Shown one piece after another: positions 5,698 to 35,469 of a DNA stretch of 64,000 nt. The notes below the pieces were generated by a model. The model was not told where the DNA came from, made no database searches, and worked only from the letters and a program-made list of their open reading frames with translations. The stretch spans positions 26,505-90,504 of the forward strand of contig DATAPP010000177.1 of NCBI GenBank assembly GCA_036265125.1. The letters are read 5' to 3'. Source of the DNA: Pseudolabrys sp. GTDB lineage: Bacteria > Pseudomonadota > Alphaproteobacteria > Rhizobiales > Xanthobacteraceae. A program made the translations under genes and the position numbers. How positions within the stretch are numbered: position 1 is the stretch's first letter; each line of letters opens with the position of its first letter.

Positions 5698-6669
5698 CTA
5701 CAGCTTGAGATCGGCGGCCTGGATCGCGGTGGCCCACTGATTGATGTCCTCCGCAATCGTTGCCTTGAATTCTTCCGGCGTCGATCCGATCGCATCCACG
5801 CCATAGTTTTCAAGCGTGCGAAGAATCTTCTCGTCCTTGAGAGCGGCTTTCACCTCCTTGACGAGAAGCTGGATGATCGCATCCGGTGTCTTGGCGGGAG
5901 CGATCAACCCGTTCCAGGTCTCTGACCGGAAACCCTCGAAGCCGCTTTCCGCAACCGTCGGCACGTCCGGCAGTCTTGCCGCGCGCTTTGCGCCCGATAC
6001 GGCAAGCGGACGTAGCGCGCCTCCCGCGTGTGGCAGCGCTTCGGACAAATTTCCGAAATAGACCGGCGCCTGATTGCCGATAACATCGGCGATGGCCGGG
6101 CCGCCGCCCTTGTAGGGCACATGAACCATGTCGAGTTGCGCCCGCTGGCAGAGCAGGACCATCGTCAGATGGCTGAGACTGCCGCTGCCGCCGGACGCAT
6201 AGACCACCTTGCCCGGGCGCGCCTTCACGTAGGCGACAAAATCCTTGAATGTCTTCGGCTCGAACTGGGGATTGGCGACCAGGCAGAACGGATTGCTGGC
6301 CACATTGCTGATCGGGGCGAAGTCGCTGACGGGGTTGTAGCTGGTTTTCCTCATTGTCGGCAGGATGGCGATCTGCGGCAGTGCGGCCATCATCAGGTTG
6401 TAGCCATCGGGCTCCGCACGCGCGATGGCCTCGGCTGCAATGATGCCGCCTCCGCCGACGCGATTTTCGACGATGAACGTCTCGCCCAGCTTTTCGGTGA
6501 GATACTGAGCGATCAGTCGTGCAATCCCGTCCGTGTTGCCGCCGGCAGCGAATGGCACGGCAATCTTGACCGGACGCTGCGGCCATTTGTCGGCCGCAAG
6601 CGCCTTGAGCGACGACGCGGCCAGCGCACCGGCAGCCAATGATTTCAGGACCATTCTTCGCGTTGTCAT
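5698..6669 (-). CDS. Bug/TctC tripartite tricarboxylate transporter substrate-binding protein
   Basis: Tat-like TRRMVLK signal; PFAAGGNTDGIAR, VENRVGGGG, HVPYKGGGPA, LPDVPTVAESG. Confidence 0.93.
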   Translation of the reverse strand: MTTRRMVLKSLAAGALAASSLKALAADKWPQRPVKIAVPFAAGGNTDGIARLIAQYLTEKLGETFIVENRVGGGGIIAAEAIARAEPDGYNLMMAALPQIAILPTMRKTSYNPVSDFAPISNVASNPFCLVANPQFEPKTFKDFVAYVKARPGKVVYASGGSGSLSHLTMVLLCQRAQLDMVHVPYKGGGPAIADVIGNQAPVYFGNLSEALPHAGGALRPLAVSGAKRAARLPDVPTVAESGFEGFRSETWNGLIAPAKTPDAIIQLLVKEVKAALKDEKILRTLENYGVDAIGSTPEEFKATIAEDINQWATAIQAADLKL

Positions 6670-30934: not shown

Positions 30935-31441
30935 TTATTTGTTTTGCGTTTTCTTCACCCGGGCTTCAGCCGAGCAGGGATTGTCGTTTGAACAATTGTC
31001 CCCGATCACGCCGACCGCCTGGATTTCGATCTCGATCCCGGGCCTCGCAAAGTTGGTGACCGTGATCAACGCGCTTCCGGGATAGTTTCCATCCTTGAAG
31101 GCTTCCTTGCGCATTTCGACAAATTTATCCCCGTAGCGGGACTCCTTGATGAAGACTGTCATGGTCACGACATTGTCCAGGCTGCCGCCCGCCCGCTTCA
31201 GAACACCGTCAACCTGAGAAAGTACTTGTTTGACCTGAGCTTCGAAATTGTTTGCGATGTTGTTGCCCTGGTTGTCCTGGGTTGCAGTCTGACCGGCCAC
31301 CCACACAATCGTTCCACCCGACGTAATGACACCGGGCGAAAACGCACGCGATAACTGAAAAGGCGTCTTCTCCATATATTCGGCGGCGTGTGCAGCCGTT
31401 GAGAGCAAAATAGCGAGCAAAAACGTCGCGACACGTTTCAT
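30935..31441 (-). CDS. RidA/YjgF/YER057c/UK114 family protein with Sec signal peptide
   Basis: MKRVATFLLAILLSTAAHA signal; FSPGV, VWVAGQ, FEAQ..QVL, GGSLDNVV.MTVF, EIEIQA. Confidence 0.85.
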   Translation of the reverse strand: MKRVATFLLAILLSTAAHAAEYMEKTPFQLSRAFSPGVITSGGTIVWVAGQTATQDNQGNNIANNFEAQVKQVLSQVDGVLKRAGGSLDNVVTMTVFIKESRYGDKFVEMRKEAFKDGNYPGSALITVTNFARPGIEIEIQAVGVIGDNCSNDNPCSAEARVKKTQNK

Positions 31442-31610: not shown

Positions 31611-32597
31611 ATGCGTTTTCTGCCGGTTTGGATTCAAATGCCGCTTCTCGCGGTTGCGGCGTTGCTTGCAGTCACCGCACCGATGCGTGCGGCCGACTAC
31701 CCCGTCCGGCCGGTCACGCTGGTTGTGGCGTTTACTCCCGGCGGGCCGAGCGACGTGCTTGCCCGCATTGTCGGCAAGAAGATGGAGCAACTGCTCGGCG
31801 CCCCGTTCGTGATCGAGAACCGTCCCGGTGCCGGCGGCAATATCGCGGCGGAAGGCGTCGCGCGTGCGGCGCCAGACGGCTACACGTTGCTGATGGGGAA
31901 CAACAGCATCCTCGCGACCAACGAAAGTCTGTACAAACATATCAATTATAGCCCCGAGAAGGACTTCATGCCGATCACACTGGTTGGCACGCAGGCCAAT
32001 ATTCTGGTGGTCAATTCTGACGTTCCGGCGCGGTCGCTGAAAGAGCTGATCGCGCTCGCGCAAGCGCAACCGGGCAAGATCAATTTTGCCTCATCGGGCT
32101 ATGGCGCGGCTGCGCATCTCGCCGGCGAACTGTTCAAGTCAGAGGCAAAAATCAACATTGTGCACGTGCCATACAAGGGCGCGGCGCCCGCATTGCAGGA
32201 TGTCATTGCCGGACACGACCAGATGATGTTTGCCACCGCGGCTTCCGTGATCGGCCATATCGAGGGCGGGCGCGTACGCGCACTGGCTGTCACGACGCTC
32301 AGGCGCACGCAGGTCTTGCCTGACGTGCCGACCATGGATGAAGCGGGTCTCAAGGGCTTTGATGCGAGTACGTGGCACGGGCTGGTTGCGCCGGCCGGTA
32401 CGCCGCCGCAGGTGATCGCAACGCTGCACGAAGCCGCGGTCAAGGCGCTGCACGATCCCGGCGTGCAAGAGTCGCTCAGCAGGCTCGGTGTCGATATCGT
32501 GGGGGACACGCCGCAAGAATTCCAGACCTACATTAAGAACGAAATTCCGAAATGGACGGCAATCGTGAAAGCCTCCGGCGCCAAACTGGACAATTAA
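31611..32597 (+). CDS. Bug/TctC substrate-binding protein
   Basis: FTPGGPSDVLAR, IENRPGAGGNI, HVPYKGAAPA, LPDVPTMDEAG. Confidence 0.93.
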   Translation: MRFLPVWIQMPLLAVAALLAVTAPMRAADYPVRPVTLVVAFTPGGPSDVLARIVGKKMEQLLGAPFVIENRPGAGGNIAAEGVARAAPDGYTLLMGNNSILATNESLYKHINYSPEKDFMPITLVGTQANILVVNSDVPARSLKELIALAQAQPGKINFASSGYGAAAHLAGELFKSEAKINIVHVPYKGAAPALQDVIAGHDQMMFATAASVIGHIEGGRVRALAVTTLRRTQVLPDVPTMDEAGLKGFDASTWHGLVAPAGTPPQVIATLHEAAVKALHDPGVQESLSRLGVDIVGDTPQEFQTYIKNEIPKWTAIVKASGAKLDN

Positions 32598-32601
32598 GAA
32601 G

Positions 32602-33933
32602 ATGAACAGGGTGGATAGGCCGAACGGAGTGATGGCCCGTCATGTGAAGCGGCTTGGCCATCTCGATTTGCCGGGGGCAGGGCAGGTTACAGTCGCCGGC
32701 CAACATGCCTTTGTCGGGCATATCCCGAACAAGCAGAATCTGGGCACATCGATTGTCGATATTTCCGATCCGCAGAACCCACATCTGGTCGCGACCGTCA
32801 CGCTTGATGACCCGGCCTCGCATAGCCACAAGGTCCGCGTCGTTGGCGATCTGATGATAGTCAACCATGAACGCAATCCGACACCGGTCGGACGGCGTGC
32901 CGAGCAATTGCCGGGGGTGCGGCGCGACCTGCGTGAAATACTCGGCCGCGAGCCAAGCCGCGCCGAACTGTCGCAGAAGCTCAATGTCACCGAGGCCGAC
33001 CTTGTCGAGATCGAGGCTGCGGAAAAGCAGCCTTACAGCAAGGGTGGCTTTCGTATTTACGACATTGCCGATCCGGCAAAACCAAACCTCATTCATCATC
33101 AACTGACCGGTGGCATCGGCGTCCACCGTTTCGATATGGATGAACGATACGCCTATATTTCAACCGAGATGGAAGGCTTCGTCGGCAACATCCTCGTGAT
33201 CTACGATCTGCGTGATCCAGAAAAACCGGCCGAGGTTTCGCGTTGGTGGATGCCGGGACAGCATGTCGCCGGCGGAGAAAAGCCTTCCTGGTCCGGCAAA
33301 CGGCACCGGCTGCATCACGCATTGCGTTTTGGCGACGAAATGTGGGCGAGCTGCTGGCACGGCGGCTTTCGTGTCGTCGACGTATCCGATCTGGCAATGC
33401 CGAAAACGGTGGCATCCTATAATTATCATCCGCCGTTTCCGGAGCCCACGCACACCGTGATGCCGGTACCGGGCGGAGTAGGCGGCAAGCGGATTGCGAT
33501 TGCTATCGACGAAGAGGATCAAGCGCAGAGCGCCAACGAGGAACAGGTGCGGCGCGGGCGGCCGCATGCCGGCATGTCGATCTTTGATGTCAGCGATTAC
33601 ACGAGCGTGAAACCCCTTTCCCTCTTTGAGGTGAGCGAACTCGACTCGCCGTTTGCCCGAACGCCTGGCGCCCGTTTCGGAGCGCATCAATTCCACGAGC
33701 GCATGTCCGGCACGCTTGTTTTCGCCGTGTGGTTCGGCGCAGGCCTGCGCATTGTCGACGTTGCCGATCCGTCGGCGCCGCGCGAGGTCGGCCATTTCAT
33801 CCCGGAGCCCGCCGGCGGGTGCCCGGCGCCGCAGAGCAATGATGTTGTGCTGGATCAGCGCGGGCTGATTTACATCGTCGACCGGCACGTCGGTTTCGAC
33901 GTGCTCGAATTCGACGGCGGCCGGGCTGCCTGA
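32602..33933 (+). CDS. LVIVD-repeat beta-propeller protein with a sigma70-region-3-like insert
   Basis: Repeats TSIVDISDP.NP, FRIYDIADP, LVIYDLRDP, FRVVDVSD, MSIFDVSD, LRIVDVADP; insert LREILGREPSRAELSQKLNVTEADL; start may be 32632. Confidence 0.85.
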   Translation: MNRVDRPNGVMARHVKRLGHLDLPGAGQVTVAGQHAFVGHIPNKQNLGTSIVDISDPQNPHLVATVTLDDPASHSHKVRVVGDLMIVNHERNPTPVGRRAEQLPGVRRDLREILGREPSRAELSQKLNVTEADLVEIEAAEKQPYSKGGFRIYDIADPAKPNLIHHQLTGGIGVHRFDMDERYAYISTEMEGFVGNILVIYDLRDPEKPAEVSRWWMPGQHVAGGEKPSWSGKRHRLHHALRFGDEMWASCWHGGFRVVDVSDLAMPKTVASYNYHPPFPEPTHTVMPVPGGVGGKRIAIAIDEEDQAQSANEEQVRRGRPHAGMSIFDVSDYTSVKPLSLFEVSELDSPFARTPGARFGAHQFHERMSGTLVFAVWFGAGLRIVDVADPSAPREVGHFIPEPAGGCPAPQSNDVVLDQRGLIYIVDRHVGFDVLEFDGGRAA

Positions 33934-33939
33934 CGTTCG

Positions 33940-35469
33940 TTATTCTCCGCCGCGGTAGAACGCGCTGACGTCGGCAGTGAACGCCTTGCGCGATTGAGGA
34001 TCGAGATAAATCATGTGCCCGCCGCGGTAAAGCTTGAGTTGCGCGCGGCCGGGTGGATCGAACGCCGGCATGTGATCGAGGACGTAACGCGTCACGGCGT
34101 ATGGCGTGATCATGTCCGAATAGCCATGAGCTATCAGAAGACGGAATGACGAATCGTAGGCCAGCAATGTGCGCAGATCGTCCTCGGCACTGGCCTGCAG
34201 GCGACCACCGCTCTGCCAGTCCCATTGGACGTCGCTCGCGAGCAATGTGTAAGTCATCTCTGTCTTGAAACCCAGCTCATTGCGGGCATAGGAGGCCATG
34301 GCGCCACCGTAGGCGCGGGTGACAACGTCAAGAATCGGATCGGGCGAACGCGATGAGCGCCGCTCGGGGTAGGGGTCATCCACGGCGAAGGTCGCATCAT
34401 AACGGCTGACGATCTTGCCTTCGGGCGCGCGCAACGTCTTCACATAGGCATTGGCAGCGAAACCGCGGGCCTGCGTCACCGCGTCAACCGGCAATCCGGC
34501 CATCTTGGCGACCCGTTCAAAGAATGTCTTGGCAGCCTCACCCTTCGGCGGAGCACCGGCCAATGTCGTCAGGTAATCCGTCATCGCAAATTTTTCAGCC
34601 GCGGCGAGCGCGTCCGGACTGAAGGCATTTTTGCGTTCAAGTTCAGCCGCCGCGAGTGACGGCAATTGCAGCGCTGCATTCAGCGCAGATTGATCGTCGC
34701 CGAAGGTCAGCCAGCCTTCCAGCAGAGGCGAGAGCATGACGATACCGGAAATGAGAATGCCCTGTTCGCTCTGCAGTGCGCGTGCCGTCTTGGCGGCGCG
34801 GAAACCGCCATAGCTTTCGCCAAAAAGATATTTCGGCGAGCCGGCGCGATTGTTCTTGGCGACATAGAGAGCGATGGCCTTGGCCATCGCCCCGGCGTCG
34901 CCCTGCACGCTCCAGAACGATTTTGCGTCGTCGCGCTTGGCCGCCCGGCTCCAGCCGGTGCCGATCGGATCGATCAGGACCAGATCCGTAAAGGCCAGCC
35001 AGGTATCGGGATTGTCACGCAAGCTTGCGCGCGCAGCGTCATGGGCATCCGGTCCGAAATCGAGTATGCGCGGACCGACCAGACCAAGATGCAAAAACGC
35101 TGACGCCGCGCCTGGACCACCGTTGAAGACAAACGTCAGCGGCCGGTTGGGCGGGGCATCCTTGGCGACATAGGCGGTATAGAACACCGACGCGCTTTGC
35201 TCGCCGGACTGGTCGTAAAAGGCCAGCGTACCGGCGGTCGCAGTGTAGGCAAGCTTGCCGCGCGGTGTATCGATGGAATGCTCGGTGACGGCGTCGGCAG
35301 GCAGCAGGCGCAACACGCCCTTGCCAGCTTCGCGGTGCTCGACGGCATTTGCCTGCGGACGGTCTTTAACGTCCTCGTCAGCACGGGCGATGCCCAGCGC
35401 GCCGGCGAGGGTCATCGCCAGCACCAAACGAAGAAGACAGGAGAGTGTTATCGGCACGCGCAGCTCCAA
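33940..35469 (-). CDS. Peptidase S10 (serine carboxypeptidase-like), exported
   Basis: Signal peptide; FVFNGGPGAAS, FTDLVLIDPIGTGWSR, YLFGESYGGFRA, AHG..D...P, Y.GGHMIY. Confidence 0.9.
   Translation of the reverse strand: MELRVPITLSCLLRLVLAMTLAGALGIARADEDVKDRPQANAVEHREAGKGVLRLLPADAVTEHSIDTPRGKLAYTATAGTLAFYDQSGEQSASVFYTAYVAKDAPPNRPLTFVFNGGPGAASAFLHLGLVGPRILDFGPDAHDAARASLRDNPDTWLAFTDLVLIDPIGTGWSRAAKRDDAKSFWSVQGDAGAMAKAIALYVAKNNRAGSPKYLFGESYGGFRAAKTARALQSEQGILISGIVMLSPLLEGWLTFGDDQSALNAALQLPSLAAAELERKNAFSPDALAAAEKFAMTDYLTTLAGAPPKGEAAKTFFERVAKMAGLPVDAVTQARGFAANAYVKTLRAPEGKIVSRYDATFAVDDPYPERRSSRSPDPILDVVTRAYGGAMASYARNELGFKTEMTYTLLASDVQWDWQSGGRLQASAEDDLRTLLAYDSSFRLLIAHGYSDMITPYAVTRYVLDHMPAFDPPGRAQLKLYRGGHMIYLDPQSRKAFTADVSAFYRGGE

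Follow-up and report, generated by a model that had tools for sequence, protein, structure and literature searches.

Why should a gene that directly follows a solute-binding-protein gene encode a β-propeller interrupted by what resembles a piece of a sigma factor? This question is raised by an open reading frame (ORF) at 32602–33933 on the plus strand of a 64,000-nucleotide stretch of DNA from a soil Pseudolabrys sp. (contig DATAPP010000177.1), which in its entirety is called the window here. The initial annotation, made from the letters and their ORFs, described the 443-residue product as an uncharacterised cytoplasmic metalloenzyme with a His-rich LVIVD propeller and a helical insert that might contact DNA or RNA polymerase or mediate oligomerization. 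The explanation that we consider reasonably probable is that the gene product is a cytoplasmic metal-dependent enzyme, similar to the haloalkylphosphorus hydrolase Sb-PTE, which acts on an anion imported by a tripartite tricarboxylate transporter (TTT) and which carries a sigma domain-3 module that was captured once and has no role in transcription.

As judged from the ORF list, Pfam, AlphaFold2 (AF2) and Foldseek, the protein is a cytoplasmic seven-bladed LVIVD β-propeller and a distant homologue of Sb-PTE. A Pfam scan of the whole protein agrees with the family proposed at the outset, matching LVIVD (PF08309) in four stretches with an E value of 1.4e-16 and a score of 60 bits (cut-off, 20.2). 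The AF2 model (predicted local distance difference test score [pLDDT] 88.4, predicted template-modelling score [pTM] 0.87) contains 28 strands arranged in seven groups of four, corresponding to seven blades. Foldseek comparison of this model to the PDB returned the phosphotriesterase Sb-PTE from Sphingobium sp. TCM1 (5hrm) as the best match, with an E value of 4.3e-18, a template-modelling (TM) score of 0.63 and an identity of about 15%. The matches that follow are generic WD40 proteins with E values of at least 1e-9, placing 5hrm ahead by nine orders of magnitude. Moreover, when a profile of the family-wide alignment (A1) was searched against the PDB, Sb-PTE was the sole protein detected, with an E value of 9.3e-20. 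By these significant matches in both sequence and fold, the protein is a homologue of the Sb-PTE superfamily.

Several other parent families were considered and rejected. Nitrous oxide reductase, whose CuZ propeller is the type of enzyme that the initial annotation offered as a precedent, is absent both from the PDB profile matches (E values up to 0.01) and from the top 50 Foldseek matches, and the relevant precedent is instead the binuclear-Mn enzyme Sb-PTE (5hrm). Thiocyanate dehydrogenase gave no matches or sub-threshold matches with Pfam, NCBIfam, Foldseek and the PDB profile. SBP56/MtoX misses both cut-offs, scoring 25 bits versus 34 in Pfam and 11.4 bits versus 650 in NCBIfam. For the whole protein the Pfam matches to SBP56 (1e-5) and Beta_propel are weak and below their cut-offs, and NCBIfam yields only far sub-threshold matches, namely to choice-of-anchor B, several sigma models and MtoX. 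Also rejected was the six-bladed Ca-dependent lactonase Rpa3624 of Rhodopseudomonas palustris (PMC9843451), an unrelated member of the PON1/SGL family.

The propeller family is large. An exhaustive HMMER search through 1.84 billion cluster representatives with a threshold E value of up to 1e-3 identified 11,076 relatives, of which 232 have E values of 1e-30 or lower. In addition to A1, we used alignments A2 and A3 (the latter with 37 sequences) and one that takes in homologues of 31–35% identity (A5). Scanning one genome per species revealed at least 587 loci, and the best 80, which share 51–96% identity with the window protein, belong chiefly to Xanthobacteraceae/Pseudolabrys, Burkholderiales and Rhodospirillales, along with further groups of proteobacteria. 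Among the carriers in culture are Pigmentiphaga litoralis, Alsobacter metallidurans, Lutibaculum baratangense and Elioraea.

The element that interrupts blade 2 of this propeller (32884–33033, plus strand) encompasses residues 95–144, forms three helices (95–114, 120–126 and 131–141) within the loop between strands B and C, and is a genuine sigma-70 region-3 domain. The match to region 3 that had been recognized over about 50 residues is borne out by Pfam scores, by profile searches and by superposition of its model onto region 3 of SigA and SigF, at TM scores near 0.8 and 1.8 Å. In the whole protein, Sigma70_r3 (PF04539) is found at residues 106–146 with an E value of 6.4e-4 and a score of 20.2 bits, under the cut-off of 25.3, and the excised window insert alone reaches 25.5 bits, a marginal pass of the same gathering cut-off. 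All 35 inserts that were scanned alone match Sigma70_r3, with a best E value of 5.3e-7, and any other Pfam family is matched by no more than 4 of them. Among full-length relatives, 30 of 37 match this model with an E value below 0.01. The match begins at model position 8 or 9, such that model positions 1–7 are missing.

A profile constructed from the 35 inserts (A4) gave 89 matches in the PDB. Among the 60 listed, nearly all are sigma factors, including all of those with E values below 0.002. The top matches, SigF (1l0o_C, 3.3e-9), FliA (1rp3, 1.4e-7) and SigA (5tw1_F, 3.9e-7), are aligned in register over region 3, whereas the best helix-turn-helix (HTH) protein that is not a sigma factor is a 434-repressor derivative at 2.6e-3. 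A control profile of reversed sequences yielded 6 matches with a best E value of 0.1. The three-helix fold of sigma domain 3 was likewise recovered by structure prediction: the AF2 model of the full protein places three helices here with pLDDT values of 79–93, and the same three helices form when the insert is modelled alone (pLDDT 80). In a Foldseek search with the isolated module, the top matches, numbering about 40, are all sigma factors, with TM scores of 0.77–0.85 and root-mean-square deviations of 1.7–2.2 Å, and the identity to mycobacterial SigA is 32% over 47 residues.

Could these helices be a generic short HTH bundle that grew in place from a loop, rather than a domain related to region 3 by common descent? 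We consider this improbable. The domain has only about 45 residues, Pfam groups Sigma70_r3 in a large HTH clan, and weak matches extend to the 434 repressor, LexA and other HTH families, all of which such a convergence would accommodate; nevertheless, matches to sigma factors are better than those to other HTH proteins by about six orders of magnitude (3e-9 versus 3e-3). Convergence might also be read into the modest Foldseek E values of the module (at least 0.014), which result from its length of only 47 residues, and into the whole-protein Pfam score, which falls under the cut-off. Against this stand the preservation of register over 40–43 residues, including the LGRePT..ELA motif, and the contrast between Sigma70_r3, present in every insert scanned, and the near absence of other families and of matches in the reversed control.

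In line with the initial annotation, the protein as a whole is not a sigma factor, since tests for regions 2 and 4 were negative: Pfam detects neither Sigma70_r2 nor Sigma70_r4 in the whole protein at E values up to 10. NCBIfam sigma models align only with residues 88–146, where they score 12–14 bits against cut-offs of 234–711.

Comparison of homologues with and without the module established that it is a true insert, as had been claimed from the interruption of the blades. Most full-length relatives have 385–395 residues and lack it, and they match the window protein in two pieces that skip its residues ~92–145. Across A1 the insertion site is occupied by a short loop or, in a few sequences, by unrelated inserts of 10–30 residues, indicating that this loop tolerates varied sequence and length. 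Among the diverse relatives in A3, the insert is present in 35 of 37, with the consensus GRKA..LP..R..L...LGR.PT.AELA..LGV...DIP.LEAA....Y. The two others (L054 and L071) carry a clean 36-residue deletion of the module, with the junction ...GRK-G-x-D/…-Y-x-x-GGFK, and keep every invariant residue of the protein.

In a maximum-likelihood tree calculated after removal of the insert columns, all insert-bearing proteins belong to one clade, which is sister to the insert-less protein P0125 (support 100/96), and L054 and L071 are nested together deep within a betaproteobacterial subclade (100/98). The tree thus requires a single gain of the module and a single secondary loss. It has its full length at the base of the clade, and no intermediate lengths occur in the sampled sister sequences, which is a further argument against gradual growth from a loop. 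Since its capture, the module has persisted in Alpha-, Beta- and Gammaproteobacteria in proteins as divergent as ~51% identity.

The propeller that received this domain, an otherwise uncharacterised cytoplasmic protein, probably holds a metal center ligated by His and Glu residues. The six His motifs that had been taken as signs of such a site are all present (SHSHK 73–77, GVHRF 173–177, RLHHA 236–240, CWHGG 251–255, PTHT 282–285 and GAHQFHE 360–366), and five of the six hold His residues that are invariant or at least 90% conserved, namely H74/H76, H175, H238, H284 and H362. The remaining residues H253 and H365 vary across the family. Conservation extends down to 31% identity for H175, R176, H238, H239, H284, E304, H362, E366 and D414, and closer clades also keep H74, H76 and E90.

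Individual candidates can be followed around the propeller. His74-Ser-His76 (32821–32829, plus strand, as for all of the codons that follow) lies where the inner strand of blade 2 starts, is invariant in A3 and falls beside E201/H204 of Sb-PTE in the HMMER alignment, making it a candidate metal or active-site position, and it is lost in the Erwinia/Rhizobium group of 31–35% identity. Strand B of blade 2 (84–91) carries Glu90 (32869–32871) at its top end. No other conserved residue separates Glu90 from the insert, and it never varies in A2 and A3 and reaches at least 90% conservation in A1. His175 of GVHRF (33124–33126), a candidate ligand that aligns column for column with position 258 of Sb-PTE, shows at least 90% conservation in A1 and no variation in A2, A3 and A5. 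In the RLHHA motif, His238-His239 (33313–33318), H238 is the third residue of strand 236–243 and is invariant in every alignment. His284 of PTHT (33451–33453), the second residue of strand 283–293 and another candidate ligand, is at least 90% conserved or invariant, as is Glu304 of DEE (33511–33513), located at the end of strand 296–303 and 20 residues after H284. Lastly, in His362...Glu366 of GAHQFHE (33685–33699), H362 and E366 are conserved and H365 is not, and H362 is three columns away from H475 of Sb-PTE in the HMMER alignment.

In the AF2 model, positions 2–4 of the inner strands of blades 1–7 are occupied by Q28, H74/H76, H175, H238, H284, H362 and N413/D414, and E90 and E304 are found at the top ends of B strands. 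Propeller geometry would therefore place the conserved residues in a ring at the mouth of the central channel. H175, H238, H284, E304 and H362 share their order with the binuclear Mn ligands of Sb-PTE, which we take to be E201, H258, H317, H389, E407 and H475, a list that Mabanglo et al. reportedly gave in 2016. In the HMMER alignment, residues 201, 258 and 475 of the 5ioj chain are E, H and H, in agreement with this list. H238, H284 and E304 occur in the same order as positions 317, 389 and 407 of Sb-PTE, and the spacing between H284 and E304 is 20 residues, versus 18 for 389–407.

A possible source of substrate is indicated by the genetic context of the family. In the window, the propeller gene is preceded on the same strand by a gene for a Bug/TctC periplasmic binding protein (31611–32597, plus strand; Pfam TctC, 1.1e-78), with which it is probably co-transcribed. 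The tctC stop codon (TAA, 32595–32597) is followed by 4 nucleotides and then the propeller ATG, which is the 4-bp distance noted originally. Related loci with enough upstream DNA number 75, and at 35 of these tctC or tctA is immediately upstream of the propeller gene. More precisely, tctC is directly upstream on the same strand in 25 of 75 loci, tctA is directly upstream in 10 (in the order tctC-tctB-tctA-propeller), tctC is elsewhere in the locus within flanks of up to 6 kb in 24, and no tct gene was found in the remaining 16. Operons of the form tctCBA-propeller are annotated in RefSeq for Ancylobacter polymorphus plasmid pB and Skermanella rosea pSR-2, and in Skermanella the stop codon of tctA and the start codon of the propeller gene overlap.

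The TTT importer is the sole conserved partner of the propeller gene, which points to an imported anionic substrate. A search for the substrate among the other neighbors led to no pathway: genes unrelated to TTT are lineage-specific and include those for aldo/keto reductase, FAH-family, GntR/FCD, DapA-like, aconitase-like, OsmC and TauE-like proteins. At two loci from metagenome-assembled genomes (MAGs), L035 and L041, there are two propeller paralogues, one located after tctA and the other after tctC, which suggests local duplication in association with different transporters.

What might the module contribute to such an enzyme? In the AF2 model, blade 2 is composed of strands A (73–81), B (84–91), C (149–154) and D (162–168), and the insertion into its B–C loop begins one residue past the invariant E90. 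By standard propeller topology this loop should lie on the same ('top') face as the N termini of the A strands, and hence on that of the His ring. The corresponding point in the HMMER alignment falls between A218 and Y219 of Sb-PTE, the latter being, as we presume, an active-site residue. Conservation within the module is seen at hydrophobic core positions (L103, L110, L114, L123, L127, V129, I134 and L137) and also in the turn G115-R116-x-P118-T/S119 and at E122, A124, R98, K/R99 and R107, with exposed positions being highly variable (entropy greater than 2 bits). This variable surface, the natural deletions and the unrelated inserts present elsewhere in the same loop favor a structural or specificity role, and the module is most likely a structural cap or lid, a specificity element or a subunit-contact element.

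A second loop on the top face is formed by residues 305–322 of blade 5 (33514–33567), another B–C loop, which bears a short helix at 311–317. In a Xanthobacteraceae/Burkholderiales subclade this loop has an extra 7–8 residues (..SANEEQVRRGRPH) relative to members of the Rhodospirillales type, and it and the sigma-3 module may jointly form a cap.

The mechanism that we propose would thus involve a binuclear His/Glu center of the Sb-PTE type, situated at the upper end of the central channel in the seven-bladed propeller, with hydrolysis as the most likely chemistry and with a substrate that is probably an anionic compound imported by TTT. A homologue of sigma-70 region 3 with ~50 residues, spliced only once into the B–C loop of blade 2 after Glu90, would emerge on the face of the His ring and would serve there as a lid, a specificity element or a contact between subunits.

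Several points weigh against this proposal. The convergence of His and Glu residues, as well as the distance from the insert to the putative active site, would follow from propeller geometry rather than from coordinates. Positions 317, 389 and 407 of Sb-PTE are not aligned by HMMER, leaving three of the six ligand correspondences to order and spacing only, and our assumed identities of the Sb-PTE ligands are corroborated only by E, H and H at 201, 258 and 475. Given the abundance of Bug genes in these taxa, some 'nearby' tctC genes are there by chance, and no other conserved neighbors point to a substrate. Finally, as the natural insert-less variants demonstrate, neither the fold nor, presumably, basal function requires the module, which weakens the case for an essential catalytic role.

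Some of the same observations could be accommodated if the protein were not a catalyst, but a ligand-binding or scaffold propeller that serves, for example, as a cytoplasmic receptor or chaperone for TTT cargo, in which the His ring binds a ligand or a structural metal. Most propellers in the Foldseek list from the PDB are indeed scaffolds, yet the one specific homologue, Sb-PTE, is an enzyme. We know of no activity for any family member, and the neighboring genes define no pathway, but the end of a transporter operon is a typical place for the first catabolic enzyme. In addition, invariant His, Glu and Asp residues that are predicted to line the channel mouth and that are kept to 31% identity are typical of catalytic metal centers. 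A role without catalysis therefore seems unlikely to us.

A more exotic function would be that of a moonlighting or trigger enzyme whose module docks on the RNA polymerase core, a sigma-binding partner or DNA, and thereby couples substrate availability to transcription. This idea, which develops the DNA or RNA polymerase contact suggested in the initial annotation, draws on the true homology of the module to region 3 (~32% identity to that of SigA) and on its retention to ~51% identity in many proteobacterial orders, which argues that it is useful. The details of the module nonetheless speak against such contacts. Exposed helix positions are the most variable and the conserved ones belong to the core or the turn. 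Its mean net charge is -1, with extremes of -5 and +6, leaving no constant basic surface, for which reason DNA binding on electrostatic grounds was rejected. In E. coli, H455 and E458 presumably read the extended -10 element. In the register of the PDB profile H455 falls before the module, outside the match and in the N-terminal part of region 3 that is missing here, and the position of E458 is taken by Arg98. Furthermore, regions 2 and 4, which provide the main affinity of sigma for core, are absent, L054 and L071 have lost the module, and no partner gene resembling a regulator or an anti-sigma factor is conserved near related loci. The suggested contact is thus unsupported, and we judge a moonlighting function of this kind to be very unlikely. 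The narrower version, in which the module keeps an interaction with the RNA polymerase core or a sigma-3-binding regulator and acts as a substrate-responsive modulator of transcription, we likewise consider very improbable.

Some features of the gene and its surroundings in the window deserve description. The listed ORF of the upstream tctC gene begins at 31440, where it would overlap a divergent Rid-family gene (start 31456), and the true start is more likely M58 (31611), where a signal peptide begins. The propeller start is ambiguous between the ATG at 32602, preceded by a weak AAGAAG, and the ATG at 32632 (M11), preceded by GGAG. M11 coincides with the point where distant homologues start aligning. 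The N terminus of the propeller protein (MNRVDRPNGVMARHVKRLGH...), as read from its sequence, has no hydrophobic signal segment, consistent with the earlier statement that a signal peptide is lacking.

Downstream, a convergent gene for an S10-like serine carboxypeptidase with an N-terminal hydrophobic leader occupies 33940–35469 on the minus strand. The stop codons of the two genes are only 6 bp apart, which leaves no room for separate terminators. Further neighbors are infA and gcrA, together with genes for a DEAD-box helicase and a secreted Rid-family protein, none obviously related to the propeller gene. A second Bug/TctC gene at 5701–6585 on the minus strand is 40% identical to that at 31611–32597, and neither tctA nor tctB was found anywhere in the 64-kb window.

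Many members of this family are named 'RNA polymerase subunit sigma-70' in RefSeq and GenBank, among them the protein on Ancylobacter polymorphus pB (L081, 8001–9287) and many Pseudolabrys MAG proteins. This misnaming is presumably driven by the 45-residue region-3-like insert, and such systematic mislabeling inflates the number of sigma factors counted in Hyphomicrobiales and Burkholderiales genomes. In the literature, we found no account of sigma region 3 in proteins other than sigma factors, of this architecture or of this TTT-linked propeller family. The architecture, a branch of Sb-PTE-like propellers with a captured sigma domain 3, therefore appears to be undescribed.

This capture is clean and datable, with a piece of the transcription machinery having been spliced into a loop of what is probably a metabolic enzyme. 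The host family is itself a large group of probable metalloenzymes, with more than 11,000 representative clusters, that end TTT importer operons. Identification of the ligand bound by the adjacent TctC would give both the specificity of the transporter and a new enzyme activity. Moreover, natural variants with and without the insert constitute a ready-made experiment on the function of the module, and cultured carriers exist, among them Ancylobacter polymorphus ZM13 (WP_244451195.1), Skermanella rosea (WP_203099306.1) and Pigmentiphaga litoralis KCTC 22165.

More distant relatives occur in different settings. In Erwinia persicina pEP2 (L083, 2766–5343), a homologue of 31% identity is followed by a gene for a CobW/COG0523 G3E GTPase, a member of a metallochaperone family, which hints that the wider propeller family consists of metalloproteins. 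Homologues of 33–35% identity from plasmids of Rhizobium sp. NXC24 (L085) and Agrobacterium leguminum (L086) have genes for SfnB-family and LLM flavin oxidoreductase proteins and ABC importers nearby, surroundings that are typical of organosulfur acquisition, and they carry an unrelated insert of ~25 residues in the same loop. Because these distant proteins have a different insert and lack H74, H76 and E90, their gene context is not transferable to the window protein.

How, then, does the window protein compare with known systems? With sigma-70 region 3, represented by 1l0o_C, 1rp3 and 5tw1_F, it shares three helices and the LGRePT..ELA motif, at profile E values of 3e-9 to 4e-6. Unlike in sigma factors, the domain is internal to a probable enzyme, regions 1.2, 2, 3.2 and 4 are absent, and its surface is unconserved. 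The insert-less TTT-linked LVIVD propellers of 385–395 residues have the same fold, the invariant His/Glu set and the same position after tctCBA. The likeness to SBP56/MtoX is weak and is restricted to a single blade (Pfam SBP56, 1e-5; NCBIfam MtoX, 0.075), and MtoX is periplasmic.

The closest characterized system is Sb-PTE (5hrm, 5ioj), which is likewise a seven-bladed propeller of the LVIVD type. Its binuclear Mn ligands, again according to the list that we assume, are collinear with the conserved His and Glu residues of the window protein, and a short loop is present in Sb-PTE where the window protein bears its sigma-3 module. Sb-PTE is exported, unlike the window protein with its lack of a signal peptide. 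It contains disulfide bonds (bioRxiv 10.64898/2026.02.02.703255). The two also differ in the compounds with which they are associated: Sb-PTE degrades xenobiotic organophosphate triesters, whereas the family of the window protein is tied to TTT carboxylate importers.

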